Shown here: in pieces, positions 5,756 to 45,194 of the stretch | Layout of the letters: each line of letters begins with the position of its first letter | Numbering within the stretch: position 1 is the stretch's first letter | Source: a virus | Lineage: Duplodnaviria > Caudoviricetes | DNA length: 64,000 bases | Reading direction: 5' to 3' (one strand) | Virus record (IMG/VR): IMGVR_UViG_3300026549_000054 | Coordinates: 40,767 to 104,766 of that record | Translations under genes and position numbers: made by a program | The notes under the pieces: model-generated | Seen by the model: only the letters and a program-made list of their open reading frames with translations | The model's database searches: none | What the model was told of the DNA's origin: nothing

Positions 5756-5759
5756 TAAA

Positions 5760-25125: not shown

Positions 25126-25142
25126 AGTTATCCTTTATGTAA

Positions 25143-25225
25143 CGGAAGGTGAGGGACTTGAACCCCCAAGGGATTTCTCCCGGCAGATTAGTAATCTGCT
25201 GCTTTACCAATTAAGCTAACCTTCC
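25143..25225 (-). tRNA. tRNA-Ser(ACT)
   Basis: GGAAGGT/ACCTTCC acceptor, G73, GCAGA-TTACTAA-TCTGC arm, long variable arm. Confidence 0.85.
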
Positions 25226-25598
25226 ATAAATCCGTTAGTAATCGTACTTTTCGGATTGTTTCTTTTCAGTCTTTTCCTTCTTAATTCCAGCTTGTTTTGC
25301 GAAAGACTTTGCCATCTTTCTCATCTTTTCCCAGCGTGCCTGTTTCTGTTCTTCAGTTTCTTTTTCTTTTACTTCTTTTCTCTTTTTCATCTTGTTTTCC
25401 TTCAAAAAGTTAGGGTATTGGTCTGCGCCCAGCGATAGTTGAGTTGCTACCTAAACCATACATTCTCTTTCAAATCTTCGTGCCTTGCGACAAGGATAAC
25501 TCACCAAACCTTTCACAGAGGTCTTACTGCGGGCTTCTTGAACACGCATTCTAGAACTGTGTGCAGAGAATTATACCCAATTCTGTTTATAAAAATAG

Positions 25599-25715
25599 CG
25601 GGTGCCGGGGATTTGAACCACCACCTGGATGTTATATATTACTATATTAAATGTAATATATGTTTTAATCTATTATTATATCTCTAATGTCCCGTACTAC
25701 TTATACGAAGCACCC
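25599..25715 (-). pseudogene. tRNA-like element with AT-rich insert replacing the anticodon loop
   Basis: GGGTGCT/GGCACCC acceptor, D-arm, GGTTCAAATCC T-loop, about 55-nt AT-rich insert. Confidence 0.55.
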
Positions 25716-25869
25716 ATCGTTTTAAGGCAAACCAATTAGCCAATCCTATACAGCTACCACTTCAAGGGACTAATTGTAAACCATTTCATTCTATGTCTAT
25801 AATATAGTTTATTATTTATAATTTGACAATACCCATTTGAACATTTTTGTTTCAAGTGAGAACTTACAA

Positions 25870-25896
25870 AAATCCCTCCCACGGATGGGAGGGATT
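25870..25896 (-). terminator. Intrinsic terminator
   Basis: AATCCCTCCCA/TGGGAGGGATT stem with U-tract on minus strand. Confidence 0.8.
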
Positions 25897-25916
25897 GGAG
25901 GTAACAACAAAATTCG

Positions 25917-26084
25917 TTAGGTCACGGGACGTTCGTCAATCTCGGTATCGGCCAAGAAAGAACCAAACTGCTTGATGATCTTCTGTCGGTCTGCTTCAGC
26001 ATCCGCCTTATTCTTACGGACAGACCAAATCATACGGCGGTCCGGTTTATCGTTAGTGTTGTAAGTTACTACAAATACGTTCAT
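25917..26084 (-). CDS. Small hypothetical protein (55 aa, MNVFVVTYNT...)
   Basis: GAGGT RBS; below ORF-track cutoff. Confidence 0.65.
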   Translation of the reverse strand: MNVFVVTYNTNDKPDRRMIWSVRKNKADAEADRQKIIKQFGSFLADTEIDERPVT

Positions 26085-26105
26085 ATTTTTACCTCTCTTT
26101 TTAAA

Positions 26106-26630
26106 TTAAAATCCCAAACGGCGGGCGGCAGTACCCAAATTGCGGAGCTGTGCGGTGTAATTTGCCATATTAACCAAAGACATACCATTCACAGTATAAT
26201 CTTCAACCTTCTTTGCGAACCGTTCGTAATGTTCATTAAGAATCATAGCACACTTCACAAAAGCATTGATGCCATTCGGAACATACTTCAACATTTCCAA
26301 ATGAGCGGGTTCATACACGAAATCAAAGAAACTCTGCTGGACACCACTTTCGCTCTTAAACAGAGCACGAACTTCATTTGTCTTCGCATGGTTTTCCTGA
26401 ATCAGTTCGTTAGACTTCTTGTCAAACATCTGCCACAGAAGGTCAAGGTCCTTGTTTTCGGGTCGGCGAGATGCTGCCATAAAATTGTAATTACCTTCAA
26501 CCTTTTCAATCATATCAATCATAAGGTCCTTCATAGTGCGAACATTGTGTTCAAAGTTGGCTCGGAACATATTGAGAGCCATTTCGGAAGTGGAAGAATT
26601 GATGTTGATGTTGATATTGATTGTTGTCAT
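26106..26630 (-). CDS. Hypothetical early protein
   Basis: Own promoter; GAGGTAACAACT RBS. Confidence 0.7.
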   Translation of the reverse strand: MTTININININSSTSEMALNMFRANFEHNVRTMKDLMIDMIEKVEGNYNFMAASRRPENKDLDLLWQMFDKKSNELIQENHAKTNEVRALFKSESGVQQSFFDFVYEPAHLEMLKYVPNGINAFVKCAMILNEHYERFAKKVEDYTVNGMSLVNMANYTAQLRNLGTAARRLGF

Positions 26631-26730
26631 AGTTGTTACCTCTTTTATTATTGTATTACAAATATAGTTAAAACTATGAACCTTGTCAATAAGAACTGCG
26701 CATTTTTATGTAAAATTTCGTTTACAAATG

Positions 26731-27105
26731 CTAAAAATCTTTCTTAATTTTGGCTAATTTCGCTCTTTCCGCTAATGTTTTTATCCTTAATGCCATTTTT
26801 TGAAACTTTTTATCAACCTTTTCGGGTGTAATTTCGTTATACATTTCATCGTCTGCCCAATCTACTGTTACTTCATCCGCAGTCGCAATCCCATCTTTAG
26901 TAATATAAAATTTAGAATAGAACTGAATTTCTTCTAATTTTGGCTTATATTCGTCAAAGTCTAGAACTGCCAATACATTCCTGCTATCTGTATTATTCGT
27001 TAATGAGGACTTTGAATACACATACAGACATCTTTTATCTTTAGTTAGTTCTTCACAGAAAAGTCCATTCTTTTCCAGGATAGGTAGTAATTCTTCATAA
27101 GTCAT
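26731..27105 (-). CDS. DF-tail family protein
   Basis: Ends KLAKIKKDF. Confidence 0.7.
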   Translation of the reverse strand: MTYEELLPILEKNGLFCEELTKDKRCLYVYSKSSLTNNTDSRNVLAVLDFDEYKPKLEEIQFYSKFYITKDGIATADEVTVDWADDEMYNEITPEKVDKKFQKMALRIKTLAERAKLAKIKKDF

Positions 27106-27258
27106 AGTTTATTCCTTTTAATAAAAAAAAGCACCCTAACATTCGCTAGGGTGCTCTGAGTTGAACAACAACCCAAGGAGGTAACAACAATTTCAATAGA
27201 TTTTCTTTTGATCGGTGGAGAAAATTGTAAAGAACCAATTTATCGCGTTGCAAATTTA

Positions 27259-27331
27259 TAGCGGGGACCGGACTTGAACCGGTGACCTTTAGGTTATGAG
27301 CCTACTGAGCTACCAACTGCTCTACCCCGCG
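27259..27331 (-). tRNA. tRNA-Met(CAT), initiator-type
   Basis: CGCGGGG 5' end with unpaired C1; CT-CAT-AA loop. Confidence 0.9.
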
Positions 27332-27491
27332 ATGAGTAAAATTTGGAGAAACATACAAAACTCCAGGTAAAAGGGGATTCTCAACCAACTAAGTCCAATG
27401 TTGAGTTTGTATATTTTTTAAACACACTGGTGAAAATGCTACCCCAACTTGGTCTGTCACATCCAAGTGTTCACAGATTATGCCACAAAGC

Positions 27492-28151
27492 CTAGCAAGT
27501 AACACCATTAATCTTTTCTTTGATTTGTTTCCAAGTTAAATTATCTTTATCCAAAATAATTATTCGTATTCCATTCTGTTGTTGAACTTTTTCAATTTTT
27601 TCAACATCAGTTATTCCAAATCGTTTGGACTCATTGTTAATCAAATAATCATTTTTAGGGTCAAGATATACATTATATTCAGGAAGATAAAAATCAGGAT
27701 AATAACGATGTTTTACACCATTAGAATCTTCCCAAAGATAATAAGTAGGTCTTTCCCATTTAACCTGGTTATCGTCAAGTTCTTTTGCTACTTCAAATTC
27801 ATATTGAGAATCTAGTTTAATACCTTTATATTCAATAGTTTTTGAAGTATGCCAACCGCCTAAATGTCTTTCAAATGCGATTTCACTCATACGTTGTTTA
27901 AATTCTTCTGTATGAGCACGTCCAAAAATTCGTTTACCTTCTTCAGTACCTTTGTATAATCTTGAAGTAGTTTCACCATATTTTCGTACACGTTCGTCGG
28001 TTTCTTTAGTCAATCCTTTGTTCCAAGCTTTAAGTCCGATAGTATGACTAACATAATTTCTATCAGGATTTTTAGGGCAAGTTCTTTCGTGATTTCTTAA
28101 AGAATTCGCATTTTTACATTCTTTTCCGCAAAATTTACAAATAAATTCCAT
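27492..28151 (-). CDS. Putative homing endonuclease (Zn-finger, NUMOD-like, PD-(D/E)xK domain)
   Basis: CKFCGKEC..HERTC, AWNKGLTKETDERV, YYPDFYLP..VYLDPK. Confidence 0.75.
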   Translation of the reverse strand: MEFICKFCGKECKNANSLRNHERTCPKNPDRNYVSHTIGLKAWNKGLTKETDERVRKYGETTSRLYKGTEEGKRIFGRAHTEEFKQRMSEIAFERHLGGWHTSKTIEYKGIKLDSQYEFEVAKELDDNQVKWERPTYYLWEDSNGVKHRYYPDFYLPEYNVYLDPKNDYLINNESKRFGITDVEKIEKVQQQNGIRIIILDKDNLTWKQIKEKINGVTC

Positions 28152-28185
28152 ATTATATGTATATTTTGGTAGAGCAGTTGATTAA

Positions 28186-28266
28186 AGCCGGAGAGAGGAT
28201 TCGGACCTCCGAAGCTTTCGCGGCTGATTACAAATCAGCTCCATTTGTCCACTTTGGTACTCCGGC
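28186..28266 (-). tRNA. tRNA-Thr(TGT) with long variable arm
   Basis: GCCGGAG acceptor; GCTGA-TTTGTAA-TCAGC; GC-GAAA-GC variable stem. Confidence 0.75.
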
Positions 28267-28363
28267 AATTTAAAGATTTGGGTAGTTCAAAGCACTACCC
28301 AGCTTGCGGGAACCCTTATCAGGGGTATCGCTCCACATAGGTTAAGCCTATGACTCTTTTTCG

Positions 28364-28448
28364 CTCTAGAGGCAGGACTCGAACCTGCGGCGGACTTGCG
28401 TCAAGAGATTAACAGTCTCCCCCCTGCTACCAGCTCGGGTACCCTAGA
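28364..28448 (-). tRNA. tRNA-Asn(GTT) with long variable arm
   Basis: GGAGA-CTGTTAA-TCTCT; G73; GAC-GCAA-GTC variable stem. Confidence 0.8.
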
Positions 28449-28454
28449 ATAAAT

Positions 28455-29065
28455 CTAATCAAATCCGTGGTATCTTCGGAGCCTCACACTTCCGAAGTTG
28501 TTTGTGGGCAAAACAAGAGGGCAACCACCCACAAAGCAAGCCAAACCACCGTGGCTCCCGCATGAAAAATCAACCAGACACACATACAAGACTTGGCACA
28601 CTTGTAATAATATATTCAAACATTATTCTGTCATCACTAACCATTTACTCTGGAGCGACCGTTTCAATGTATTGTCAGTGTTGGGATTTTCACACAAAAG
28701 ATAGGAACCGATGCCTAAACAATAGCTTCACTATCTACCGATTTCTTCATCATTGGCCTGTGCGACTATTAGTGAACTCTACCGCCACAGTAGTTTCGTA
28801 CCAATAGGTCCCTGGGATTTCACCAAATACCTATTGGATAATAACCATCACATAATGAATACTCACGCACATTATGTTTTTACGAATACATTATACCTAC
28901 TTCCATACCTTTTCAGTATTTCCATAGTCCCTTCAAGCTCGGTTGGAACCTGTGTTAGGGGAATGTATGTCTGGTTGATTTCTCAACCTTCGTTTTTTAT
29001 TTATAGTTTTTGTTAAGGTCAGTGCTAATTAACTACCTAGTACTTTTAAACTACAGTCCATAACA
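28455..29065 (-). ncRNA. Candidate large structured ncRNA
   Basis: No credible ORF; long-range AAATCAACCAGACA/TGTCTGGTTGATTT pairing and several local hairpins. Confidence 0.45.
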
Positions 29066-29074
29066 AAAGAGTAG

Positions 29075-29156
29075 TCGGTAAGGTGGGACTTGAACCCACA
29101 CCCCTCTCGGGACCGGATTTTGAGTCCGGCGCGTCTACCAATTCCGCCACCTACCG
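29075..29156 (-). tRNA. tRNA-Leu(CAA)
   Basis: CCGGA-CTCAAAA-TCCGG; class II cloverleaf. Confidence 0.9.
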
Positions 29157-29158
29157 GT

Positions 29159-29821
29159 TTATTCGTAAACCCCTATTAAATCTTTATTGGATGGAAAATT
29201 AAATCTATTATGTTTGGTTTTGTTTGATAGATTTCTAAAATAAGGAATCCATTTTCTAAACTTTCTTCTACATTCTACGATGTTATTTTCTTCTCCAAAT
29301 TTTGAAACACAATCCCAATTTTCAGAATGATATTTGTTCCATAATTTTCTATAAAATTCTTTTTGCGTTACTTTTATTTTTTCATTTTCGCCATGAAACA
29401 AATTTCTTCCTTCAATCCAAGTTTCATCAGGTGCGACAATAAAATGTTTACATTCACCAGTGTTTCTATTTGTGAACCAATGTTTACCAAAATGAGAATT
29501 ATTAACACCACCTTGTTTTACTTTCATATTTTCTCGGTGAACATTAACATATTCTTTTCTAAGTAATTCATAAGCTCTAGCATTTATATATCTTTCACAT
29601 TTTTGTGTTGGTTTTAATTTCATACTCCAAAAAGCATATAACATTTTCTTTCGTTCATTTGAACCTTTTGGATATATTTTAATCAGTAGCCAATGACATA
29701 TAAAATGTTCTCTTGGTGTTAGTAACACCATATTATAAGAATTGTTAACACCACCTAAACTTTTAGGTAATATATGATGATTCTCATAATAGTTAGACGA
29801 GCCGCTTGGTTCTATTTTCAC
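29159..29821 (-). CDS. HNH homing endonuclease
   Basis: ENHHILPKSLGG..N...LTPREHFICHWLL. Confidence 0.85.
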   Translation of the reverse strand: MKIEPSGSSNYYENHHILPKSLGGVNNSYNMVLLTPREHFICHWLLIKIYPKGSNERKKMLYAFWSMKLKPTQKCERYINARAYELLRKEYVNVHRENMKVKQGGVNNSHFGKHWFTNRNTGECKHFIVAPDETWIEGRNLFHGENEKIKVTQKEFYRKLWNKYHSENWDCVSKFGEENNIVECRRKFRKWIPYFRNLSNKTKHNRFNFPSNKDLIGVYE

Positions 29822-29886
29822 ACCTTGCGTTAAAAATAATTCTCAAATAAATTTCTCTATAATTCATAATGTATTTATTTTTTCTT

Positions 29887-29964
29887 TGGAGCGGGTGACG
29901 GGAATCGGACCCACACCATCTGACACCGGATATGCCAGTACTCTACCAATTAAGCTACACCCGC
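29887..29964 (-). tRNA. tRNA-Gly(TCC)-like with expanded anticodon arm
   Basis: GCGGGTG acceptor, U73, encoded CCA; CTGGC-ATATCCGGT-GTCAG. Confidence 0.65.
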
Positions 29965-30071
29965 CCAAATAGAGGACTATTCCGTCTCAACATTTAGTAA
30001 TATAGTAAAATCTATTCTCATTGTCAATAGTGTTTGTATTTTCTTTGTTTCAAGTTAAACTTCTGTTTTCG

Positions 30072-30155
30072 TGGGTCCGGAGAGATTTGAACTCTCAATC
30101 CTTTGCAGGCTTTCGGGTTTAAGCCGAAATTGTATACCAGTTCCAACACGAACCC
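30072..30155 (-). tRNA. tRNA-Leu(TAA)
   Basis: TTCGG-CTTAAAC-CCGAA; class II. Confidence 0.9.
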
Positions 30156-30162
30156 AGTTTAG

Positions 30163-30236
30163 TCCACACTCAGGGACTTGAACCCCGGACCCGTGCCTTA
30201 TAAGAGCGCTGCTCTCACCAACTGAGCTAAGTGTGG
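30163..30236 (-). tRNA. tRNA-Ile(TAT)
   Basis: CT-TAT-AA loop; CCACACT/AGTGTGG acceptor. Confidence 0.85.
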
Positions 30237-30303
30237 ATTTAGTTTGTCTTAATATCGCAGTTACTCTCTGCTTGGGGGATTCGCACCCGCCGTTACATTT
30301 TCG

Positions 30304-30378
30304 TTGAGGTGGCTGGATTCGGACCAGCGAATACAGGAGTCAAGGTCCTGTGCCTTAGACCAGCTTGGCGACACCTCA
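30304..30378 (-). tRNA. tRNA-Gln(TTG)
   Basis: CAGGA-CCTTGAC-TCCTG. Confidence 0.85.
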
Positions 30379-30614
30379 GAGTTTGATGAATTGGTGATTA
30401 CGGACATCCATCAGGTCCGTGGTACGAACTTTATCACCTAAGTCATGCTGTCCGATTAGAGGGTCTCGGGTAGGATTCTTTATTTCGCAATCTGTTTTTA
30501 CGGGGAGCCAGCGCCCATGCCCCAACCTGTTTTTTGCCTCTAGCGAAACGGTTGTGAACCTTGCAGCAAGATTTGACTCTCGCCACTAATCGCTTGTAAA
30601 CTAATCAGCATTAG

Positions 30615-30688
30615 TACACCCGGCAGGATTTGAACCTGCGACCCTCTGTTTAGAAGACAGATGCTCTATCCAACTGAGCTACGGGTGC
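30615..30688 (-). tRNA. tRNA-Arg(TCT)
   Basis: TCTGT-CTTCTAA-ACAGA. Confidence 0.9.
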
Positions 30689-30898
30689 ATAAGACCAGTG
30701 TTGTTGCACTTACTTCACCTGTGCGATACATCGCAGCCTTTTCAACTTTGTCTTAAAAAGCTCATTTGTGTTAGATTGGTTACTAACATCGCCCGCGGAG
30801 TGCTATCTTCTCTGCCGAGTTGTTTGCACCATACAGTTGCCGCCGGAGTACTAAGGATATGTGCTATTAACACATACTCATTTATACTAACAAATTAG

Positions 30899-30983
30899 TG
30901 CTAGCTGGTGGATTCGGACCACCGAAAGCCCAGGGGGCGGGAAATTTACAGTCTCCAGGAATTGACCACTATCCGAAACTAGC
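30899..30983 (-). tRNA. tRNA-Tyr(GTA)
   Basis: GGAGA-CTGTAAA-TTTCC; long variable arm. Confidence 0.85.
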
Positions 30984-30984
30984 A

Positions 30985-31404
30985 TATCAAAAACTTTCGT
31001 TGGTTTGCGAGAGTTCCAACTTCTCAGTGGGCTACCACCTTTGCGTTGCAGGGCTACCTGCTATTGCGTTTTAAATGCGGGCCCCATTGTCATACAAAAT
31101 AATTCGTACCAACGGGGTACTCGGTCCATGCTTCGGCTCTGTTTTATTCCTTGCATGATTCCAACATTCGTATAAAACCGGTGGAACTAGCAGAAAACTA
31201 TCCTAGGTTTCGTTTCTGTTGTTCTAGTTCCATTTGAGTTATATTGTCTTTGGGCTTCACCATTCTTCTTACTATCTTACCCAACCAAGTACCGGGAAGG
31301 TCCCCTTTAGGCAGTGTTAATGGTATCTGTGGAGGTGGTTGAATGTCCTCAATCTCCGGTGGTTACCGGTGTTTTTCCTGAAAAACTTCACAGGTGTTTA
31401 ATAG
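30985..31404 (-). ncRNA. Candidate structured ncRNA with RNase P RNA-like motifs
   Basis: Non-coding, GC-richer; GAGGACATTC, CAACAGAAACGAAACC, AAACAGAGCCG; GGAACTAG/CTAGTTCC stem. Confidence 0.35.
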
Positions 31405-32043
31405 TTAGTGTTCCAATGAACTACTCAAATTAAAGTCATAAAAATCTAAAAACAATTCAATTTTATCTTTCATCATTAGTTTGCCATCATTAGTTTTTAT
31501 TTCATTCCAAGCAATACGATAGACAAAATAACCTTGTTTTCTTAAAAATTCATCTCTTATAGTATCAGATTCTTTTCTGTCTTTATATTTGTGTTGTTTG
31601 CCATCAATTTCTAAATCTATATTTCCAATAACAAAATCTAAAAAGTATTTTCCGACTTTCTTTTCACGATTATATTTTATTTTGTTATTATTTAATACAG
31701 TTTCAAAAAATCGTTCCGCATAAGATTTTATATTTCGTGTAGTCCAACCTTTATGTGTTCCATTTTGAACTTTTTCAAGTTGGATTTTACGAAGTTTTTC
31801 TTTTTGTTTATCAGAAATTTTCTTATGTTTTCTACAACATATTTGACAGTATCCAGTACTATTTCTTCTTTCTAATTTGGTGTGACAATCTAAACAAAAT
31901 TTATCTGGCAATCGTTTTAACTGCTTTGAAATTTTCTGTTTTTGTTCTTCAGTGTGTTTTCTTTTGTTAGCACAACTTCTAGAACAAAATCGTCCAGAAC
32001 CAAATACTGAAAGCATTTCTTTTCCGCAACATTCACATTTCAT
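31405..32043 (-). CDS. Putative homing endonuclease, DUF559/Vsr-like (start at MKCECCGK)
   Basis: GRFCSRSCAN, SYAE, YFLDF..LEIDGKQH..RDEFL..GY.V.RI.W; the ORF-track extension overlaps tRNA-Pro. Confidence 0.8.
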   Translation of the reverse strand: MKCECCGKEMLSVFGSGRFCSRSCANKRKHTEEQKQKISKQLKRLPDKFCLDCHTKLERRNSTGYCQICCRKHKKISDKQKEKLRKIQLEKVQNGTHKGWTTRNIKSYAERFFETVLNNNKIKYNREKKVGKYFLDFVIGNIDLEIDGKQHKYKDRKESDTIRDEFLRKQGYFVYRIAWNEIKTNDGKLMMKDKIELFLDFYDFNLSSSLEH

Positions 32044-32048
32044 ATTCG

Positions 32049-32123
32049 TCGGGATAGCTGGATTTGAACCAGCAATCTCTCGGTCCCAAGCCGAGCGACT
32101 TAACCAGGTTAGCCTATACCCCG
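32049..32123 (-). tRNA. tRNA-Pro(TGG)
   Basis: CTCGG-CTTGGGA-CCGAG; CGGGGTA acceptor. Confidence 0.9.
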
Positions 32124-32262
32124 AGTTTCCGTGTGTCAAATCATCCTGCATTTATCGGAGCAGCGCCGGAGGCCTTCACATTCATCTTTTAGACGGGCGG
32201 GGACGAATCAACTGCTTTAGGAAGTGACAGACTAACGTCCCGCTTGATTTGATTTTTTTTCG

Positions 32263-32292
32263 TGAGGATGGCGGGGGTCGGACCCGCGACCA
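32263..32292 (-). pseudogene. tRNA 3'-half remnant
   Basis: GGTCGCGGGTCCGACCCCCGCCATCCTCA (T-arm plus acceptor strand) abutting the endonuclease stop; no 5' half seen. Confidence 0.55.
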
Positions 32293-32952
32293 TCACTCAA
32301 GTTTTTCAAAAACTAATTTCAAGTATTCAGATTTCTTTTCTTTTGACAAATGTTTAAATTCACTCCATCTCACTCTTTCTATACAAGTCCATCCATTTTC
32401 TAAAAGTTTTTGGGTTCTAACTTTATCGTGTTCAACTATTCGTTTATCCAAATAATGTTGTTCACCATCAACTTCTAAATAGATTTTCTTTTCAGGCCAA
32501 GCAAAATCAAGGAAATAACCACACTGATAATAATTTTGTTTATATTCAATATGTTCATTATCAAAAACTTCTTTGAAGTATTTCTCTGGGTAACTATCAC
32601 CTTTTGAATGGTGGTTAATCAAATATGGAACTTTATCAGGATGTTCAATCAAATACTGTTTTCGTCCTTCCGAAATTTTCTTTTTATGTTCATCACTATG
32701 ATGTGTTCCAGTATTAGGATTCACTAATCGTCCAGATTTATAACCTTCGCTTAAAGTTTCACCTCTCTGTTTTACTCTCTTATCAGTTTCTTTTGTTAAA
32801 CCCTTATTCCAAGCATCGTGAGTTGCGTTCCATTTTACAAATGGTGAAATTTTCCTGTTAGGATTTTTCTTACACAACCTTTCGTGATTTCTTAATGAAT
32901 TTGGGTTTAAGCACGGTTTTCCACAAAATTTACAAATACAATCATTTTCCAT
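32293..32952 (-). CDS. Putative homing endonuclease, DUF559/Vsr-like
   Basis: CKFCGKPC..HERLC, AWNKGLTKETD, SYPE, LDFAWPEKKIYLEVDGEQH. Confidence 0.8.
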   Translation of the reverse strand: MENDCICKFCGKPCLNPNSLRNHERLCKKNPNRKISPFVKWNATHDAWNKGLTKETDKRVKQRGETLSEGYKSGRLVNPNTGTHHSDEHKKKISEGRKQYLIEHPDKVPYLINHHSKGDSYPEKYFKEVFDNEHIEYKQNYYQCGYFLDFAWPEKKIYLEVDGEQHYLDKRIVEHDKVRTQKLLENGWTCIERVRWSEFKHLSKEKKSEYLKLVFEKLE

Positions 32953-32995
32953 ATTGTATTTATAATTCGGTAGAGTATCGTACTTGTATCTCTTA

Positions 32996-33067
32996 TGCGG
33001 CCAACGGGACTCGAACCCGTGTCCCTAGATTAAAAGTCTAGTGCTTCACCATCAAAGCTTTAGCCAC
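32996..33067 (-). tRNA. tRNA-Lys(TTT)
   Basis: CTAGA-CTTTTAA-TCTAG. Confidence 0.9.
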
Positions 33068-33641
33068 ATAACGAGAGTTTTAACGAGTTTTCTTTCTCAA
33101 CCCTATTTTCACGTCTCCAAAACATATATTTGGATTTAAGCAGCCGTTAGGCATACATTATCGTCGGGTTATCTGGTTCCAAATTTTCAATCTTCTCATT
33201 GGTTTCACGAACCAATCTCATTGTATTCACTAATATAGAAAAATCTATTTGGTTTGTCAACCGTTTTTAGTGATTTTTTTGTAAATTGTAATTTACATTG
33301 GGTTTATTGTTTCTGGTCAATAACTCATCGCCACTTCAGCAAACATAAACCACAACGCAAATCTTTCAATCTACTAATCAAGCTCTCGGCTCAATTCATT
33401 CTCAATTACAGGTTAAAATATAGTAACTAACTACATCCTTGTCAATCCCATTTTGTTAATTTTATTGTAAATTTTTCTAAACAAAAAACCGCAACATTTT
33501 TTATGTCGCGGTATCCTGTTCTCCTTCTAGAAAGAAATAATTAACTTACACAACAGAAATACCGCTATCCTCCAAATAGTGTTTAGGCAATCTAACTTGT
33601 GTATTAATTATTAAATTCATATTGTATATATAATAAATTTT

Positions 33642-37117: not shown

Positions 37118-37182
37118 TTCTGTTTTCCTTAAAAAAGAAAGGAACAGTCCCGTTTCCGGGACCCGTTCCGTTTTAGTTTCGG

Positions 37183-37992: not shown

Positions 37993-38097
37993 AATTAGTA
38001 CCTCTTGTTTTGTGGTTTTGTTTTGTTTACAGTTTAAATATAGTTATTTTAGACTGTCTTGTCAATGGATTTTGTGTATTTTTGTGTAAAAAGAAAT

Positions 38098-38607: not shown

Positions 38608-38831
38608 ACTTCTGTTACTACTTCATATTGAATGTTCTGTTTATCAAGTTCGTCTTTTACCAACGGCAGTTCATATTCGGCAAAACAAACTCGGTCATTG
38701 AAATCATATCCCCACTTAAATTCGTAAGTGCGTTCAATAGGGCGACATCCGAGCATACCAGGTTTACCCATAGTGGCTCTTGTAATAAAGTCCACCATTA
38801 TCTTATCACCACTTACAATATGATAAACCAT
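38601..38831 (-). CDS. Hypothetical protein
   Basis: ORF in operon. Confidence 0.6.
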   Translation of the reverse strand: MVYHIVSGDKIMVDFITRATMGKPGMLGCRPIERTYEFKWGYDFNDRVCFAEYELPLVKDELDKQNIQYEVVTEVC

Positions 38832-38833
38832 TC

Positions 38834-39151
38834 TTACACCTTCTTCCAGTAAGTGATACGATACTTGGAACCTTCATACAGATATGGAACCTTACCGATA
38901 TAATCGTGTTCCGGATGCTTTTCCATAAACTTCAAACATTCTTGCTCAGATCCCACGAACTCACTAAATTCATACTTATTCGGGTCATTGGGATCCGAGA
39001 CCTGAAAGTCAACCGGACGCATACCCAAAACCTGCGGGTGTTCGTCAAGTTTCTTGTCAATCTTTGCCTGGAACTTTTTGGCAATCTTTTCGGCCTTCTC
39101 TGCGCGGGCTATTGCCATTTCTGCCTTAGTTCTACGATGACGCTTTGCCAT
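38834..39151 (-). CDS. Hypothetical protein with RRTKAEM basic N-terminus
   Basis: MAKRHRRTKAEM. Confidence 0.65.
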   Translation of the reverse strand: MAKRHRRTKAEMAIARAEKAEKIAKKFQAKIDKKLDEHPQVLGMRPVDFQVSDPNDPNKYEFSEFVGSEQECLKFMEKHPEHDYIGKVPYLYEGSKYRITYWKKV

Positions 39152-39155
39152 ATTC

Positions 39156-39398
39156 TTACCCCAACTTGTTCTGGTTCAAAAGTGTAACGAAAGTTGTATA
39201 TTCGCACTTGGCATACTTCAAATGAAGCATCCTGCCATTAACCTTCAAATCTACTCCATCGTCCTTGAATTCGCCAATTTTGCCATTATTCTTATAAATC
39301 GCAAGTCCCATAACATTCGTCTTGTCATTCTTGAAACCCTTTATTTCACAGCCCGCCACAGAAAGCAACTGCATAACGATGTTCTTATTGATATTCAT
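39156..39398 (-). CDS. Hypothetical protein
   Basis: AAGGAG RBS. Confidence 0.6.
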   Translation of the reverse strand: MNINKNIVMQLLSVAGCEIKGFKNDKTNVMGLAIYKNNGKIGEFKDDGVDLKVNGRMLHLKYAKCEYTTFVTLLNQNKLG

Positions 39399-39415
39399 TC
39401 CGGTTTCTCCTTAGA

Positions 39416-39580
39416 TTAAAGTCCCATTTGAAGGTTGATAAAGCCATCCAAGAAAATCAAACCAAAGAACACTACCATACCGACAATACCCTGGAGAATG
39501 TACTTTCTCTTTTCCTTACGAGCCATAGCGCGGTTGTATTCTGTCCAGTTCGTGTAACCATTCGGGATGTATTCGTTCAT
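39416..39580 (-). CDS. Small membrane protein (54 aa)
   Basis: GAGG RBS; ILQGIVGMVVFFGLIFL hydrophobic segment. Confidence 0.6.
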   Translation of the reverse strand: MNEYIPNGYTNWTEYNRAMARKEKRKYILQGIVGMVVFFGLIFLDGFINLQMGL

Positions 39581-39686
39581 AGTTTAACCTCTTGTTTAAT
39601 TTCTAAAGTAAATATAGATAATTTAAACTGAACTGTCAATAGTTTTATTCACCTTTTCTGTAACTTTTTCTTTACATACATAATCT

Positions 39687-39962
39687 ATGACTAATTTTGA
39701 TGGCTTCTTAACAAATAATAATGCAGTTTTAATTAACTTCGTGTCAGTATATGACAATGACCCTTATTTACAAAAGTTTACAGAAGATTCATCAGATAAA
39801 AAAGAGGTAGTATATAAGACTACCTTCAATGGAATTTTAACAAATACAGAAGATTACTTGAAATGTACTTTAACAGAATTTAAGAGCATTTATGAGAATG
39901 ATTTGTATTTAAGTAACTTTAAAGAAACAATTAAAAATGAATTAGAAGAATTTTTAGAATAA
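39687..39962 (+). CDS. Hypothetical protein
   Basis: Lone plus-strand ORF followed by a hairpin terminator at about 39984-40016. Confidence 0.55.
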   Translation: MTNFDGFLTNNNAVLINFVSVYDNDPYLQKFTEDSSDKKEVVYKTTFNGILTNTEDYLKCTLTEFKSIYENDLYLSNFKETIKNELEEFLE

Positions 39963-40460
39963 TCTAGTTTGCTATCGCAAACAAAAACATTTGAAGGATA
40001 AACCTTCAAATGTTTTTTATTTTCTATAAAGGAGAATTAAATCTTTTTGGGCAACCGGGAAGTTTGAAACTTCAGCCTATTTAGGAACACTAGAACTGAA
40101 GTTTTTGATTCTTTTTGGTATAACGTATGAAGAATCACTTCTGTGGGATTTACGAATAAGCTTATGGGTCGGTCTTCCTGTACTCCAGCTACATCTTATT
40201 CAACCAAGGCGGCTATGTGTTAAACTTGCGAAGTTTAACTACGATGTTAGATTTTCAATGATAGTTTACTCAGTCTTCAAACCTTTTAACCTATCCAAGT
40301 GTGTAACTAACTTTTACACATATTGGCTATCCCTCTACCGATAGTGGCATTGAATTGTACTTCGTTCCGAGGAAATAGACTTTCAAATGTCAATAGCCAA
40401 ATATAGTAATTATTACTTTATGTGTAAAAAATTTTAAAAATTTTTGATCTGCAGAATTAG

Positions 40461-40532
40461 AGCCCTATACCAGATTCGGACTGGTGCCACCTGCTTGGAA
40501 GGCAGAAATGCTAACCACTACACCAATAGGAC
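40461..40532 (-). tRNA. tRNA-Gly(TCC)
   Basis: TCTGC-CTTCCAA-GCAGG; U73. Confidence 0.85.
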
Positions 40533-40536
40533 AGTA

Positions 40537-40612
40537 TCTCCCCTACTGGAGTCGTACCAGTGTTATTTTTCGGTGTAAACGAAGTGCCATAAACCATCTA
40601 GGCGAAGGGGAG
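40537..40612 (-). tRNA. tRNA-Val(TAC)
   Basis: TTCG-TTTACAC-CGAA. Confidence 0.75.
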
Positions 40613-40616
40613 TTAG

Positions 40617-40685
40617 TTGCAGGTATGGGTGCCGACACCACTGCCACAAAGATATGAGCTTCGTGTGTATGCCGATACCCCTGCA
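40617..40685 (-). tRNA. tRNA-Met(CAT), divergent (could be Ile2)
   Basis: CGAAG-CTCATAT-CTTTG; short D-arm, atypical T-arm. Confidence 0.55.
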
Positions 40686-40689
40686 ATAG

Positions 40690-40760
40690 TTGTTCGTGCT
40701 GGAATCGGACCAACATTAAGTGATTCAGAGTCACCTGTACTACCGTTATACTAACGAACA
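40690..40760 (-). tRNA. tRNA-Gln(CTG)
   Basis: GGTGA-CTCTGAA-TCACT. Confidence 0.85.
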
Positions 40761-40768
40761 ATAATTTA

Positions 40769-40841
40769 TCCCAATGCCGGAGAACGATTCCGAACTACAA
40801 GTGCCACAAACTTGTGTGCTACCAATTACACCACATCAGGG
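40769..40841 (-). tRNA. tRNA-His(GTG)
   Basis: CAAGT-TTGTGGC-ACTTG; no encoded G-1:C73 pair. Confidence 0.75.
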
Positions 40842-40850
40842 ATGAAGTAG

Positions 40851-40923
40851 TGCTCCATCAAGGACTCGGACCTTGGACTCGCTGATTAAGAGTCAGCTAC
40901 TCTACCAACTGAGTTAATGGAGC
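40851..40923 (-). tRNA. tRNA-Lys(CTT)
   Basis: GCTGA-CTCTTAA-TCAGC. Confidence 0.9.
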
Positions 40924-41550
40924 ATTAGTAATAAAATCTATAATTTTTTCAACATATTTTTGTTTTTCTTCTAATGATAATTTTTGGTATTCGGCCCAAT
41001 TACATCTACCAATTAAAGTCCATCCTTCACTTGATAAATTTTGAGTTCTTTTATTATCATATAGTTTTCCTTCTTCTGTATAATGTGTCCTTCCATCTAC
41101 TTCAAAATATATTTTCTTTTCAGGCCAAGCAAAATCTAACCAATAAGGTTTAACATAATAATTATTTTCAAAATTTATATTTTTGTTTGTAAAAATGTTA
41201 AACCAACTTTGTTCTGCATAACTTCTTTGTCTTCGCCCTATCCAAGAACTTGCTCTACCTTCTTTGTGTGCTTTTATCATTCCTTTTGATATATTTTTTC
41301 TTCCTTGCTCAGACATAATATATTTTTTATATGGTATTTTATTTGGATTTAATTCACAATGTTTTTCGTGATTAATCATTGTTGATTTTGTTGTATATTT
41401 TGAAAAACCACAAAATTTACAAGATAAATTATATTTTGGTTGTTGTCCTCCATTATTTAATATATTATGAACTTTTATTTTATGACTGTATAATTCTTTC
41501 TTATCATCAAAGATTTCTTTACATATTTTACATTTATATTTTAATTTCAT
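40897..41550 (-). CDS. Putative homing endonuclease, DUF559/Vsr-like; stop codon lies inside tRNA-Lys
   Basis: C2H2 fingers, SYAEQ, LDFAWPEKKIYFEVDGRTH. Confidence 0.8.
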   Translation of the reverse strand: MKLKYKCKICKEIFDDKKELYSHKIKVHNILNNGGQQPKYNLSCKFCGFSKYTTKSTMINHEKHCELNPNKIPYKKYIMSEQGRKNISKGMIKAHKEGRASSWIGRRQRSYAEQSWFNIFTNKNINFENNYYVKPYWLDFAWPEKKIYFEVDGRTHYTEEGKLYDNKRTQNLSSEGWTLIGRCNWAEYQKLSLEEKQKYVEKIIDFITNAPLTQLVE

Positions 41551-41565
41551 ATTTTTATTTATTTA

Positions 41566-41639
41566 AGCACACTGAGGGATTTGAACCCCCGAATCGCGGA
41601 GTTGCAGTCCGCTGCATTACCAGGCTTTGCTAAGTGTGC
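41566..41639 (-). tRNA. tRNA-Cys(GCA)
   Basis: GCGGA-CTGCAAC-TCCGC; U73. Confidence 0.9.
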
Positions 41640-41699
41640 GAATTGATTACTGTGGAAATTTATTTAAATGGCGACGTATCCTCCACCACAGTAATCTTA

Positions 41700-41773
41700 A
41701 GTGGCTACTGGGATTTGAACCCAGGTAACCTGTTTGGTAAACAGGCTCATTAACCAGACTATGATATAGCCAC
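41700..41773 (-). tRNA. tRNA-Gly(ACC)
   Basis: CCTGT-TTACCAA-ACAGG; U73. Confidence 0.8.
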
Positions 41774-41782
41774 ATTTGTTCG

Positions 41783-41857
41783 TACATCTGATAGGAGTTG
41801 AACCTATATCACATCGGCGTTCGTAGCACCGGACTCTTCCAATTAAGCTACAGATGC
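41783..41857 (-). tRNA. tRNA-Arg(ACG)
   Basis: CGGTG-CTACGAA-CGCCG. Confidence 0.9.
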
Positions 41858-41863
41858 ATTTAG

Positions 41864-41950
41864 AGGAGGTAGAAGGATTTGAACCCTCGTGTGATTTCTC
41901 ACCCACTGTTTTCAGGACAGGTCCGATAAGCCAGGCTCCGGCATACCTCC
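41864..41950 (-). tRNA. tRNA-Ser(TGA)
   Basis: CTGT-CCTGAAA-ACAG; long variable arm. Confidence 0.85.
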
Positions 41951-41954
41951 ATAA

Positions 41955-42028
41955 TCGCCCAGGTGGGACTCGAACCCACAAAATTCTGCTTCTAAGGCAG
42001 ACACGTATACCAGTTCCATCACCGGGCG
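41955..42028 (-). tRNA. tRNA-Leu(TAG) lacking long variable arm
   Basis: TCTGC-CTTAGAA-GCAGA, then ATTTT directly into the T-stem. Confidence 0.8.
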
Positions 42029-42042
42029 TTAATTTGTTTTAA

Positions 42043-42113
42043 CAGAAGTACCAGGACTCGGACCCAGACGAACAGACTTGGAAACTGCCATGCTACCGTT
42101 ACATCATACTCCT
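42043..42113 (-). tRNA. tRNA-Trp(CCA)
   Basis: AGGAGTA acceptor, G73, TT-CCA-AG loop. Confidence 0.8.
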
Positions 42114-42119
42114 ATTTAG

Positions 42120-42193
42120 CGACATCGGCGGGATTCGGACCCGCGAATGATGGTTAGACAGACCACTGTGTTAGACCACTTCACCACGATGCC
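42120..42193 (-). tRNA. tRNA-Asp(GTC)
   Basis: GTGGT-CTGTCTA-ACCAT; G73. Confidence 0.85.
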
Positions 42194-42199
42194 ATATAG

Positions 42200-42274
42200 T
42201 CCATAGGGATGGATTTGAACCATCAGTCTCCACCTTATCAGAGTGGCAAACGGAACCAGTCGTTATGCCTATGG
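42200..42274 (-). tRNA. tRNA-Ile(GAT)
   Basis: CCACT-CTGATAA-GGTGG. Confidence 0.8.
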
Positions 42275-42286
42275 ATAATTTGTTAG

Positions 42287-42359
42287 TGCCGCCCTCCCGT
42301 AACGATCGGGAATCTCAGGATTTTCAGTCCCGCGCATAGACCATCTTTGCTAGAGCGGC
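42287..42359 (-). tRNA. tRNA-Phe(GAA)
   Basis: CGGGA-CTGAAAA-TCCTG. Confidence 0.85.
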
Positions 42360-42363
42360 ATAG

Positions 42364-42437
42364 TGGATACATACGGGATTCGGACCCGTGACCTCTTCAG
42401 TGCTAATGAAGCGCTCTTCCAACTGAGCTAATGACCC
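42364..42437 (-). tRNA. tRNA-Ala(AGC)
   Basis: CTTCA-TTAGCAC-TGAAG; G3:U70. Confidence 0.8.
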
Positions 42438-42446
42438 AAAAGTTTA

Positions 42447-42521
42447 TGGACACATAAGGGATTTGAACCCTTGACATCCTGCGTGCAAGGCAGGCGTTCT
42501 ACCAAACTGAACTAATGGCCC
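42447..42521 (-). tRNA. tRNA-Ala(TGC)
   Basis: CCTGC-CTTGCAC-GCAGG; G3:U70. Confidence 0.9.
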
Positions 42522-42528
42522 GTTTTCG

Positions 42529-42600
42529 TAGTACATTCGGGAGTCGGACCCGAGTTTCCGCCTTGAAAGGGCAGCGAACTAACCACTATTCTAATGTACC
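42529..42600 (-). tRNA. tRNA-Glu(TTC)
   Basis: CTGCC-CTTTCAA-GGCGG. Confidence 0.85.
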
Positions 42601-42607
42601 ATATTCG

Positions 42608-42681
42608 TAGTGCTATCCGGATTTGAACCGGAGTTTTAAGAGTGAAATTCTTATGTCCTAACCAAACTAGACGATAGCACC
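42608..42681 (-). tRNA. tRNA-Glu(TTC), second copy
   Basis: TAAGA-ATTTCAC-TCTTA. Confidence 0.85.
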
Positions 42682-42683
42682 AT

Positions 42684-42720
42684 AAAAGAAAAATCCCGTG
42701 GTTTGTGTTCCACAGGATTT
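42684..42720 (-). terminator. Intrinsic terminator (putative attenuator) immediately before the tRNA array
   Basis: AAATCCTGTGG-AACACAAA-CCACGGGATTT followed by TTCTTTT. Confidence 0.8.
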
Positions 42721-42745
42721 AATTTGTTACGCCGGAAAATTATAA

Positions 42746-42859
42746 CTAATCAAATGCCTGTGTAGAACCTCTATCTTCGCCTGCGACTGCACCTTCAAAT
42801 CGTTCGTCAATGGCGAACCAATCCTGTGCGAGGCAAATGTGGGACTTAAGCATCATCAT
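42746..42859 (-). CDS. Putative leader peptide of the tRNA array (37 aa)
   Basis: MMMLKSHICLAQDWFAIDERFEGAVAGEDRGSTQAFD*; TAAGGA RBS; lies between promoter and terminator. Confidence 0.7.
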   Translation of the reverse strand: MMMLKSHICLAQDWFAIDERFEGAVAGEDRGSTQAFD

Positions 42860-42987
42860 AATTTCTTTTTTCCTTATATTGTATATATAACTTTTAATTT
42901 CTGTTTTTTGATTCTTTTGTTAAACACATCCAAAATAATTGTTATTGGTTTTTCAACCGCTACACAATCATTTTGTTTACATAGACA

Positions 42988-43016
42988 AATATAGTATTTA
43001 ATTTTATATTTGTCAA
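42988..43016 (-). promoter_or_regulatory. Sigma70-type promoter for leader and tRNA array
   Basis: TTGACA-N17-TATATT. Confidence 0.85.
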
Positions 43017-43053
43017 TGGGTAAATGTAATAATTTTGATTTTTTTGATCTTCG

Positions 43054-43521
43054 TTATTTAAAGTCTTTTGCAAATTTAGCTTCTTTGATATACTCCTGCA
43101 TAAGTTTTGAGGCTTCGCTTACTTCCATCCATTTGCCAAATTTAGTAACCAACTTCTGTAACTGTTCAAAAGTCAAATTCTTACATTTTGATTCAAATTC
43201 ACTCTGTATATTCCACCAATCGGGAACATTCTTTGTTCCGGTACTGGAGTAGGCAGGCGTGTAATAAAAACTGTATCTAGTATTATTCTTAACTGTTCCA
43301 ATTTTTATACTTGCGTCATATCCATATCCATTGTAACCAGATGAAAAAGTGATTTTACATTCAATTCTCGGTTTGCTTTGTAGATTGCCTATAATGTCAA
43401 AGCAATCAAACTGCCCACCGAATTTTAATGTTGCTAGTTTATCAACTGCTACTTTAATGTTTTCAGCATTAGTAATAGCTGTGTTGCATAAATGTTTTAT
43501 TCTTTCTTCTGCGTAACTCAT
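43054..43521 (-). CDS. DF-tail family protein
   Basis: Ends KEAKFAKDFK. Confidence 0.65.
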   Translation of the reverse strand: MSYAEERIKHLCNTAITNAENIKVAVDKLATLKFGGQFDCFDIIGNLQSKPRIECKITFSSGYNGYGYDASIKIGTVKNNTRYSFYYTPAYSSTGTKNVPDWWNIQSEFESKCKNLTFEQLQKLVTKFGKWMEVSEASKLMQEYIKEAKFAKDFK

Positions 43522-43589
43522 TTTAAACTCCTATGAAAAAGAGGGTTAGGTTGTTACACCCAACCCTCTCGGGAGGTACAACAAACTAA

Positions 43590-45005
43590 CTATTCTTCAA
43601 TGGAGAAGAGCTGTTCGGTAGTGAGATGGTACAAGCACCAATCCGGGATGTAACTCTCAGTACCTGGCGTGGAAATCATAAAGATTTTCTTGAAGAAATG
43701 TTCAGGCTTCGGGAAATCAAATCCCATATCAGTGAAATAGATGATACCATCAAATTTCGCCTTTCTTTCCTTAATTGCTTCAAGAACGCATTCAGGGTTC
43801 GTGCATCCGCGACCAATCAGCTTGAAGTCGGACTTCTTCTGCTTCTGTTCGGTGAATGGACCGCAAACACCATCCCAGAAACAATAGGACACATCAGCGT
43901 GTTTTACGAACTTGTTCACAATCGCACAACCACGTTCCACGTCCTTATCGTCCATAGAGCCGGAGCAGTCAATCGCCACCAAAATGCGAGAACGGAATTT
44001 GTGCTTCTTACCAGGAACATCAAATCCCTTTCTGCGATCTGGTCGCATACGGGTATCTTCAGTGTACTTATCCACTGTGTTCGCCTTGAATCTCTTCAGG
44101 ACTGTCTTCGGGTCAAATTTTGGAGTATTGGCAGCAAGAATTGCCTGGAGCAAACCACCACTAATGTTACCCCACTGAGAAGCATTTTCTGCAATGTGGT
44201 GAGTGATTTCCTGGATTTCCTGGTCTACCAGAGTATTTTCTTCCCAACCTTCCGTAGCCTTTTCAGCTGCGTCCTGGGAGCCATCAAAATACTCATCCAA
44301 TGCGTCCTTCGTCGGGTTTCCGCTTCCGCCCTTACCCTGTTGGTTTCCCTTGCCCTGGCCCTGTCCATTACCTTGTCCCTGACCCTGACCTTGTCCCTGA
44401 CCCTGTCCGCCACCACCTTGCTTTTCAGCGCAATCCATCAACATAGAGAACACCTTTTCAAGGAACCAGTGGTCTTCTTCATTGAACTTGATTTTGGCGG
44501 TTTCTTGACGGAATTTTGCCTTGTTCGGAAATTCCTGGAGCATCTGCATAACTTCTTGCTTGTGAGTATTCAACACAGAACGCTGATTTTCGTCAAACGA
44601 GATATAGTCAGATGCCTTCTTGAAAATCTGGAGCGGGTAGCATTTACGAGTAGTGATGTGGTGCAAAGCAATTCGCAAACATTCACTAAACATAATGTAA
44701 GCCAAAATGGAACATTCCTGAATCTTGTTCAACCAAATCGGGTTATATTCCATATTGATAGCACTACCAGTGCCACGGCAATTCAAGCGGAGAGTGACCT
44801 GCGGGTCCTTGACCGGCTTTAAATCACACAAACCAAAGTATGTGAGAACCGCCGGCTCAAATTGCATCAACTTCACCGCGGAAGTGATGAGCTGTTCGGA
44901 CTTGGAATTACATTCATCCCACAGTTCCATATATTTCTTATTATCTTCTTTATAAAGCTGGGCGAGTTCGTCCTTGGGAAGATTTGAAATTTGAATTAGA
45001 GCCAT
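43590..45005 (-). CDS. VWA-domain protein (DUF2201-like), MoxR partner
   Basis: AIDCSGSM MIDAS, GRGCT, IYFTDMG; (GQ)n linker. Confidence 0.85.
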   Translation of the reverse strand: MALIQISNLPKDELAQLYKEDNKKYMELWDECNSKSEQLITSAVKLMQFEPAVLTYFGLCDLKPVKDPQVTLRLNCRGTGSAINMEYNPIWLNKIQECSILAYIMFSECLRIALHHITTRKCYPLQIFKKASDYISFDENQRSVLNTHKQEVMQMLQEFPNKAKFRQETAKIKFNEEDHWFLEKVFSMLMDCAEKQGGGGQGQGQGQGQGQGNGQGQGKGNQQGKGGSGNPTKDALDEYFDGSQDAAEKATEGWEENTLVDQEIQEITHHIAENASQWGNISGGLLQAILAANTPKFDPKTVLKRFKANTVDKYTEDTRMRPDRRKGFDVPGKKHKFRSRILVAIDCSGSMDDKDVERGCAIVNKFVKHADVSYCFWDGVCGPFTEQKQKKSDFKLIGRGCTNPECVLEAIKERKAKFDGIIYFTDMGFDFPKPEHFFKKIFMISTPGTESYIPDWCLYHLTTEQLFSIEE

Positions 45006-45194
45006 AAATTTGTACCTCTTAAATTAGTTTTCGTTTTTCGTATAGTCTAATATAGTAAATTGTGAGACGTATGTCAATCCAAATTGGGTAAAATAAAATT
45101 TACAAAGAAAAAAGGTGGTTTTCCCATTTAGTTGAGAAAACCACCCTCAACCACCAATAAGGAAATTTGGGCATTATACCCAAAACGAATTAGA

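Follow-up and report, generated by a model that had tools for sequence, protein, structure and literature searches.

In a 64,000-nucleotide (nt) stretch of the virus record IMGVR_UViG_3300026549_000054 (Duplodnaviria; Caudoviricetes), hereafter called the window, a 37-codon leader open reading frame (ORF) and an intrinsic terminator lie between an early promoter and an array of 18 tRNA genes. The 5' arm of the terminator also pairs with the end of the leader ORF in a longer helix, the antiterminator, and the terminator and this stronger antiterminator are mutually exclusive. We consider the leader region to be probably a trp-type attenuator, which reads the translation of the leader and gates read-through from the early promoter into the 18-tRNA array. 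As its likeliest input we propose slow decoding of array-type codons, an assignment that we hold to be about an even call. The hairpins and their geometry are computed, and the switching behaviour is inferred from this anatomy. To our knowledge, hardly anything is known about how the expression of phage tRNA arrays is controlled. The window is part of a 104.8-kb record, which is only 31% complete according to CheckV, showing that the phage is large. The DNA and RNA libraries containing the stretch come from cattle and sheep gut or rumen, and the host of the switch is a large uncultured rumen phage.

Mutually exclusive hairpins ahead of the tRNA array

A preliminary description of this DNA placed a sigma-70 promoter, a ribosome-binding site (RBS), a 37-codon ORF and an intrinsic terminator ahead of the tRNA genes on the minus strand, all of which were borne out at the same positions and with the same leader peptide. 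The elements of the leader region are as follows, in window coordinates.

42988..43016 (-): sigma-70-type early promoter, TTGACA-17-TATATT, matching 11 of 12 consensus positions
42931..42975 (-): hairpin at the 5' end of the leader transcript in the folds, 12+2+4 pairs, within the 5' untranslated region (UTR)
42848..42875 (-): region 1, the translation initiation region, with the RBS AAGGA (42875-42871) and three ATGs from 42859
42746..42859 (-): leader ORF, 37 codons plus TAG; codons 3-23 nearly invariant across 19 variants, tail variable, frameshifts included
42797..42841 (-): leader codons 7-21 (HICLAQDWFAIDERF), resembling the TnaC sensor domain (HICVTSKWFNIDNKI)
42742..42769 (-): region 2, the antiterminator 5' strand, which in the folds holds the stop codon TAG (42748-42746)
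42707..42730 (-): region 3, the antiterminator 3' strand, overlapping the terminator 5' arm (42720-42710)
42682..42720 (-): intrinsic terminator, 11-bp stem, 8-nt loop and the run TTCTTTTAT, -14.9 kcal/mol, ending 1 nt before tRNA-Glu

The terminator hairpin (42720-42691, 11 pairs, then the T-run) stands directly before the first tRNA of the array, tRNA-Glu, which starts at 42681, with 9 nt from hairpin to tRNA. The preliminary description had noted that the leader can pair with the terminator 5' arm and that a second 9-nt complement (CACAGGATT) exists at 42828-42820; the latter is present as described, whereas the pairing proved to be far larger than had been reported. When the leader is folded up to the terminator loop, 42769-42742 pairs with 42730-42707 to form an antiterminator of 23 pairs at -20.0 kcal/mol, which consumes all 14 nt of the terminator 5' arm and is to be compared with -14.9 kcal/mol for the terminator alone. 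Among 3000 dinucleotide shuffles of the upstream 55 nt, eight reach -20 kcal/mol and four of these also pair all 14 nt, as do 5 of 3198 genomic 55-mers.

Folding of the whole naked leader gives -67.2 kcal/mol for the terminator state vs. -64.9 kcal/mol for the antiterminator state, a difference of 2.3 kcal/mol. For the terminator state, the fold predicts that region 2 is bound to the RBS and the start codons through three helices of 6, 5 and 7 pairs (42873-42868:42739-42734, 42863-42859:42748-42744 and 42854-42848:42759-42753). The predicted pairing between regions 1 and 2 is 1-3 kcal/mol better for cognate partners (-14.6 and -13.5 kcal/mol) than for chimeras between the window and its relative L016 (-11.6 and -12.5 kcal/mol), a comparison that covers one divergent lineage. 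Such an arrangement would follow the 1:2, 2:3, 3:4 scheme known from the trp attenuator, the role of region 1 being taken by the translation start.

The mechanism that we propose would operate as follows, with the RBS and start codons as region 1, the last leader codons and the stop codon as region 2, the overlap with the terminator 5' arm as region 3, and the terminator 3' arm as region 4. With no ribosome on the leader, 1:2 and 3:4 would pair and transcription would stop 1-9 nt before tRNA-Glu. A ribosome whose P site is held no further along than about codon 28 would open region 1 and leave region 2 free, so that the 2:3 antiterminator could form and the tRNAs would be transcribed, whereas a ribosome reaching the stop codon would cover region 2, allowing 3:4 to form and transcription to stop. 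These positions follow from footprint arithmetic in which the ribosome is taken to cover about 15 nt of mRNA 3' of the P site, and according to which the antiterminator core is free with the P site at codon 28 or earlier and covered with the ribosome at the stop codon. As the stop codon lies inside the antiterminator 5' strand, a ribosome at the end of the ORF would mask the antiterminator, a geometry that, judged from leader lengths, is shared by 16 of the 19 variants. A shortage of an array-type tRNA species would thus slow the decoding of the leader and raise tRNA output, followed by self shut-off.

The promoter scan found no consensus promoter on the minus strand between 42690 and 41640, i.e., from the terminator to the next 13 tRNAs; these 13 conserved tRNAs would therefore be made only by read-through. 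An internal candidate, TCTACA-16-TATAAT (42766-42739), was rejected as the array promoter, being located upstream of the terminator and having lost its -10 element in L016. The leader promoter itself is kept in L019 and in all seven related loci. The minus strand of the window has at least ten identical TTGACA-17-TATATT sites, the leader promoter included (45077, 43016, 39639, 38065, 36891, 35254, 33445, 33260, 30027 and 26689), the regularity of which is far above that of shuffles, and these ten sites are probably phage early promoters read by host sigma-70. The AAGGA RBS lies 11 nt upstream of the first of the three ATGs, the same type and spacing as in the phage's 401-amino-acid (aa) ATPase gene.

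The leader was found in seven related contigs from IMG/VR and JGI metagenomes, only one of which, a close relative, belongs to IMG/VR; the more distant IMG/VR relatives L004, L005 and L008-L010 are without this leader, and a blastn search of isolated phages with 42400-45100 matched only in tRNA genes. Identity to the window is 93-99% in the 5' UTR, 94-100% in leader codons 1-23, 69-98% from codon 24 to the stop, 92-100% in the terminator and 83-92% in a neighbouring 155-aa gene, for which 113 homologues at 68-92% identity were found. The antiterminator beats the terminator in all six relatives that reach the terminator (-20.5 to -22.6 vs. -14.9 to -16.6 kcal/mol), L014 having been left out of this comparison because its contig ends inside the terminator. 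L016 has a different antiterminator 5' strand, and the pairing is still formed.

Gene callers report the leader ORF on other contigs as well, in 17 clusters. The 19 aligned peptide variants used throughout comprise 17 database peptides together with the translations of the loci; two of the database peptides, P0114 and P0120, were excluded from alignment A2 on account of called starts lying upstream, their cores being the same. Residues 3-23 are nearly invariant across the 19 variants. Apart from the family itself, a profile search of 1.84 billion representatives returned just two repeat proteins, which are unrelated, and a motif scan of viral contigs returned seven stretches, of which one is a known relative and six are not Met-started leader ORFs.

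Candidate inputs: leader composition and the TnaC-like core

Two properties of the leader peptide bear on what the attenuator might sense. The first is its composition relative to the tRNA genes, which are arranged as follows.

40460..42681 (-): proximal array of 18 tRNAs: Glu x2, Ala x2, Phe, Ile, Asp, Trp, Leu, Ser, Arg, Gly, Cys, Lys, His, Gln, Val, Gly
40897..41550 (-): endonuclease ORF (DUF559, zinc finger), located within the array between tRNA-Cys and tRNA-Lys
25142..33068 (-): distal group of 13 tRNAs, including Asn, Pro, Thr, Tyr, Met and Arg-TCT

In the window, 31 tRNAs are called by both ARAGORN and Rfam, every one of them on the minus strand. The proximal array had been described as 19 tRNAs for 16 amino acids; the array is real, but both tools count 18 tRNAs, which serve 15 amino acids with Met not among them. 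What had been counted as the nineteenth, at 40613-40688 (-) between tRNA-Gln and tRNA-Val, is a 76-nt element that is conserved and carries a CAT anticodon loop; neither ARAGORN nor Rfam calls it as a tRNA, even at E<=10. This element has a canonical anticodon loop, is without a normal T arm and is present also in L001, L013, L017 and L020; it may be an aberrant tRNA-Met/Ile-like gene. Likewise, the statement that N, P and Y are absent from both the leader and the tRNAs is correct for the proximal array, but does not extend to the window: N, P, T and Y are missing from the proximal array only and are supplied by the distal group. Taken together, the two groups cover all 20 amino acids, and the code is split between them over 25142-42681, with Lys-CTT, Gln-CTG, Leu-TAG and Arg-ACG in the proximal array and Lys-TTT, Gln-TTG, Leu-TAA/CAA, Arg-TCT and Ile-TAT in the distal group. 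The DUF559 endonuclease ORF is not found in L001 or L013; in L020 (about 5050-5870), a similar ORF is inserted into tRNA-Val, destroying it. Directly after the array, behind a promoter-like TTTACA-17-TATATT (40428-40400), there is a full-length match to the Rfam cow-rumen-2 RNA (RF02947) at 40141-40245 (-), with 105.6 bits vs. a gathering score of 66, which locates this orphan rumen RNA motif in a large phage beside tRNA genes.

A count confirms that the first 32 leader residues use exactly 16 amino acids, and the codon-anticodon matches quoted in the preliminary description (AAG/Lys-CTT, CAG/Gln-CTG and GGT/Gly-ACC) are all correct. This exact 16-residue set is rarer than chance: it occurs in 45 of 2,000,000 random peptides, in none of 11,721 32-residue windows from the window's own long ORFs and in one of 171 short ATG ORFs in the window, which is the leader itself, and its probability given the TnaC-like residues is 5e-4. 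The residues N, P, T and Y occur in none of the 19 variants ahead of position 29. The array can decode every codon from 1 to 29, for which, given the peptide, p = 0.017 if codons are used uniformly and p = 0.007 if they follow the codon usage of the phage. Codon 30, AGA, is the first that it cannot decode, and Thr, Pro or Asn codons further on are likewise unreadable; by footprint arithmetic, a ribosome stalled from codon 30 onward would already reach the antiterminator core, so that a stall there would no longer open the switch. L001, which has neither tRNA-Val nor a Val codon, fits a co-variation of leader and array. That the leader senses every tRNA of the array is plausible.

A second attenuator ahead of the distal tRNAs was considered and rejected, as the 24-codon ORF MRLVRETNEKIENLEPDNPTIMYA (33221-33147 (-)) has neither a Shine-Dalgarno sequence nor a terminator. 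This ORF starts about 10 nt after the promoter at 33260-33232, ahead of the distal tRNA-Lys(TTT), and has a high content of N, P, T and Y, which are missing from the proximal leader. Its region is 99% kept in G001, in which the tRNA-Lys behind it differs in sequence.

The second property, a new point which the preliminary description had missed, is the likeness of leader codons 7-21 to TnaC. PF08053 (Tna_leader) is the sole match among 24,736 Pfam families (E 0.004-0.009, residues 7-20 vs. profile positions 5-18), and the NCBIfam model TIGR02616 matches with E 0.015-0.031. Among 177,635 PDB sequences, nothing but two TnaC chains was matched (E 0.6-1 for the single sequence, 0.07 for the profile), HICLAQDWFAIDERF being aligned with HICVTSKWFNIDNKI. 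A six-frame search of the 104.8-kb record gave the leader ORF as the sole match (E 0.002). The motif HIC-x4-WF-x-ID has 51 matches in 596 Gb of prokaryote genomes, nine of them in short Met-started ORFs, and all nine are Escherichia/Shigella-type tnaC. The likeness is at the peptide level, since the DNA of the block is identical to E. coli tnaC at only 25 of 45 nt.

The TnaC literature reports that L-Trp contacts TnaC W12, I15 and D16 (PMC8429421), that W12, D16, I19 and P24 are critical and position 13 must be aromatic (PMC8429421, PMC3299997, PMC10941005), and that TnaC requires the conserved Trp and the Asp four residues later (PMC3299997, PMC8429421). The three L-Trp-contacting residues are all matched in the leader, as are the aromatic F13 and the basic K18; the Trp is present in 16 of the 19 variants and the Asp four residues later in all 19. 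The same literature holds a Pro at W+12 to be essential and single-residue insertions or deletions (indels) between W12 and P24 to abolish induction (PMC3299997, PMC8429421, PMC10941005). However, no variant has Pro at W+12 (Ala, Glu or Lys instead), W14 is replaced by Cys or Leu in three of the 19, and two-residue indels downstream of the core occur among the variants, so the leader is not a member of the TnaC family. From its sequence, the leader may work partly like TnaC, with the TnaC-like nascent-chain segment perhaps anchoring or slowing the ribosome.

These observations bear on an alternative in which the attenuator is the same and the input is a TnaC-type arrest of the nascent chain, W14, F15, I17 and D18 forming a tunnel pocket that would bind L-tryptophan or some other small molecule. 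With the ribosome arrested, the antiterminator would be free, and tRNA output would follow a metabolite rather than tRNA supply. The search results and the matched L-Trp-contacting residues described above speak for it, and with an arrest at W+12 (codon 26) the edge of the ribosome would coincide exactly with the point where the antiterminator begins. On the other hand, all scores are under the curated cut-offs (16.8 vs. 25 bits for PF08053, 14.8 vs. 23.55 bits for TIGR02616), the essential Pro is absent, the downstream indels are tolerated and W14 varies, though any change of W12 abolishes TnaC stalling. Moreover, the leader has Phe at W+7, where TnaC tolerates only medium-sized hydrophobic residues, and there is no obvious reason to couple tRNA output to tryptophan. 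We regard this alternative as unlikely.

Points against the attenuator and readings without sensing

Several observations weigh against slow decoding as the input, or against the attenuator itself. The composition statistic was defined after the data had been seen, from a pattern spotted by eye. No tRNA called in the array serves Met, the leader contains neither GGA nor GGG for Gly-TCC to read, three of the 19 variants have lost the single Trp codon and nine the single Val codon, and L020 keeps its Val codon while its tRNA-Val is broken. Most codons occur once and there is no run of regulatory codons, the 16 amino acids occurring in 25 codons, so sensitivity to a partial shortage would be low. 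The duplicated residues I, D, E and F are invariant too and the core matches TnaC, neither of which is explained by a mere codon list. Leader length ranges from 29 to 59 codons and the position of the stop varies, with the ORF reaching or crossing the terminator arm in three of the 19 variants. The naked leader is 94% in the terminator state at equilibrium. Two-sided covariation was found in none of the 19 helix pairs, 16 of which never vary; two one-sided compatible changes (C-G to U.G and G.U to A-U) were seen. Conservation is weak evidence here, since the relatives are very close and the endonuclease genes in the arrays could homogenise them; gene conversion, given the endonuclease ORFs inside the arrays, could account for part of it. 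Lastly, contigs from RNA libraries cannot prove transcription.

The claim that every array tRNA is sensed, as put forward in the preliminary description, is accordingly divided: the residue and codon matches are unusual, but Met is unserved, Gly-TCC lacks a codon, Val is often lost, and position 33 is Pro in 17 of the 19 variants, making the Thr of the window exceptional. The expected co-variation of leader and array is seen in L001 and fails in L020, the relatives being too similar for a fuller test. The attenuator proposed there is well supported by its anatomy, with the exclusive terminator and antiterminator, the stop codon in the antiterminator 5' strand, the predicted pairing of the RBS and AUGs, and the preservation of these in relatives; the sensing of tRNAs is only plausible.

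Assembled contigs cover the leader in all four rumen RNA libraries, each of which has the Pro allele at position 33, and in two of the four a contig bridges the terminator into the tRNAs. Gaps in coverage over the tRNAs are not evidence. In two studies, contigs end near the terminator, at 42684 (X1) and 42717 (X2), 33 nt apart; contigs cannot show RNA ends, and these positions are no more than a hint.

The bridging contigs would also be expected if nothing were sensed, i.e., if the leader were an ordinary small phage protein gene with a partial terminator and leaky constitutive read-through, the hairpin and the composition match being by-products. Leaky terminators are common in phage early regions, and the peptide core is conserved as a sequence and not merely as a composition. 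In addition, L005 (10407-10559) and L008 (15249-15398) carry a different conserved, basic ORF of 49-50 aa, which ends 4-5 nt before tRNA-Leu(TAA) without a terminator; that of L005 is placed behind the same promoter type. However, this reading does not account for an antiterminator which is stronger than the terminator, takes its whole 5' arm, holds the stop codon and beats shuffles, nor for a predicted three-region architecture involving the RBS. Frameshifts are tolerated in the C-terminal third, something seldom seen in a functional protein, and PHROGs has no family for the peptide. We judge it improbable, somewhat below the TnaC-type input.

Very improbable is a function of the RNA alone, with the leader of about 300 nt serving as a stable small RNA or as a processing/RNase P leader element and the ORF untranslated: the 5' UTR is indeed conserved like the ORF (93-99% vs. 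83-92% in the neighbouring 155-aa gene), RNA-library contigs of about leader size exist, and the fold of lowest energy has the RBS and AUGs base-paired, but the leader matches no Rfam family above chance level (best trpB motif E 1.1, cow-rumen-1 E 5.8), four synonymous vs. one non-synonymous change in codons 1-23 of the DNA loci and a 3-nt deletion in L016 that preserves the frame point to a coding ORF, the TnaC match is in the peptide without a DNA-level match, and a real gene in this phage shares the RBS type.

Comparison with known systems and meaning

Known leader-peptide attenuators include trpL, hisL, pheL, thrL, the ilvGMEDA leader and pheST (pheM). Of these, the ilv and thr leaders are multivalent, each responding to several amino acids, and the target of pheM is a gene of the translation machinery. 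The phage leader resembles such enterobacterial attenuators in having a promoter-proximal short ORF, an intrinsic terminator, an exclusive antiterminator and a predicted protector pairing, with ribosome position as the proposed deciding factor. It differs from them in three ways. First, it is a phage element that would regulate tRNAs rather than enzymes. Second, in place of a regulatory codon run, 15-16 amino acids are each represented by roughly one or two codons. Third, its region 1 is the RBS/AUG region itself. The phage leader switch is very likely a trp-type variant with tRNA genes as its target.

With E. coli TnaC and tnaCAB, the leader shares a leader peptide, termination control and the block HIC-x4-WF-x-ID-x-(K/R)-(I/F). 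Besides the missing Pro and the scores below the family cut-offs, it differs from TnaC in its stop codon (TAG vs. TGA) and in its longer peptide, and tRNA genes stand downstream in place of tnaA and tnaB. In addition, an intrinsic terminator and antiterminator are found here, whereas tnaCAB is described as being controlled by a Rho-dependent rut/boxA mechanism (PMC3299997, PMC10941005). T-box riboswitches are alike in that antitermination couples the expression of translation genes to the state of tRNA; however, they bind uncharged tRNA directly and need no ORF, and the T-box Rfam model gave no match at E<=1 over 24000-44500, nor at E<=10 over the leader. As judged from literature search results, no leader-peptide attenuator of phage tRNA genes and no phage TnaC-like peptide was found.

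An extended form of the proposal is an OR gate, in which about one codon for almost every array tRNA is combined with a TnaC-type tunnel anchor, so that the loss of any host tRNA, e.g., through an anticodon nuclease, would switch on the replacement set, which then turns itself off. We hold this combination to be unlikely as a whole, and its link to anticodon nucleases, made already in the preliminary description, is pure inference.

Phage tRNA arrays are usually discussed as constitutive aids to codon usage or as spares against tRNA-cleaving defences. If the proposed attenuator is true, the phage would measure decoding capacity and supply tRNAs on demand, and leader-peptide attenuation would be extended from amino-acid operons to tRNA genes. 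The TnaC-like core, in turn, might be a naturally occurring example of a TnaC sensor segment coupled to a switch with an intrinsic terminator, outside any tryptophanase operon.

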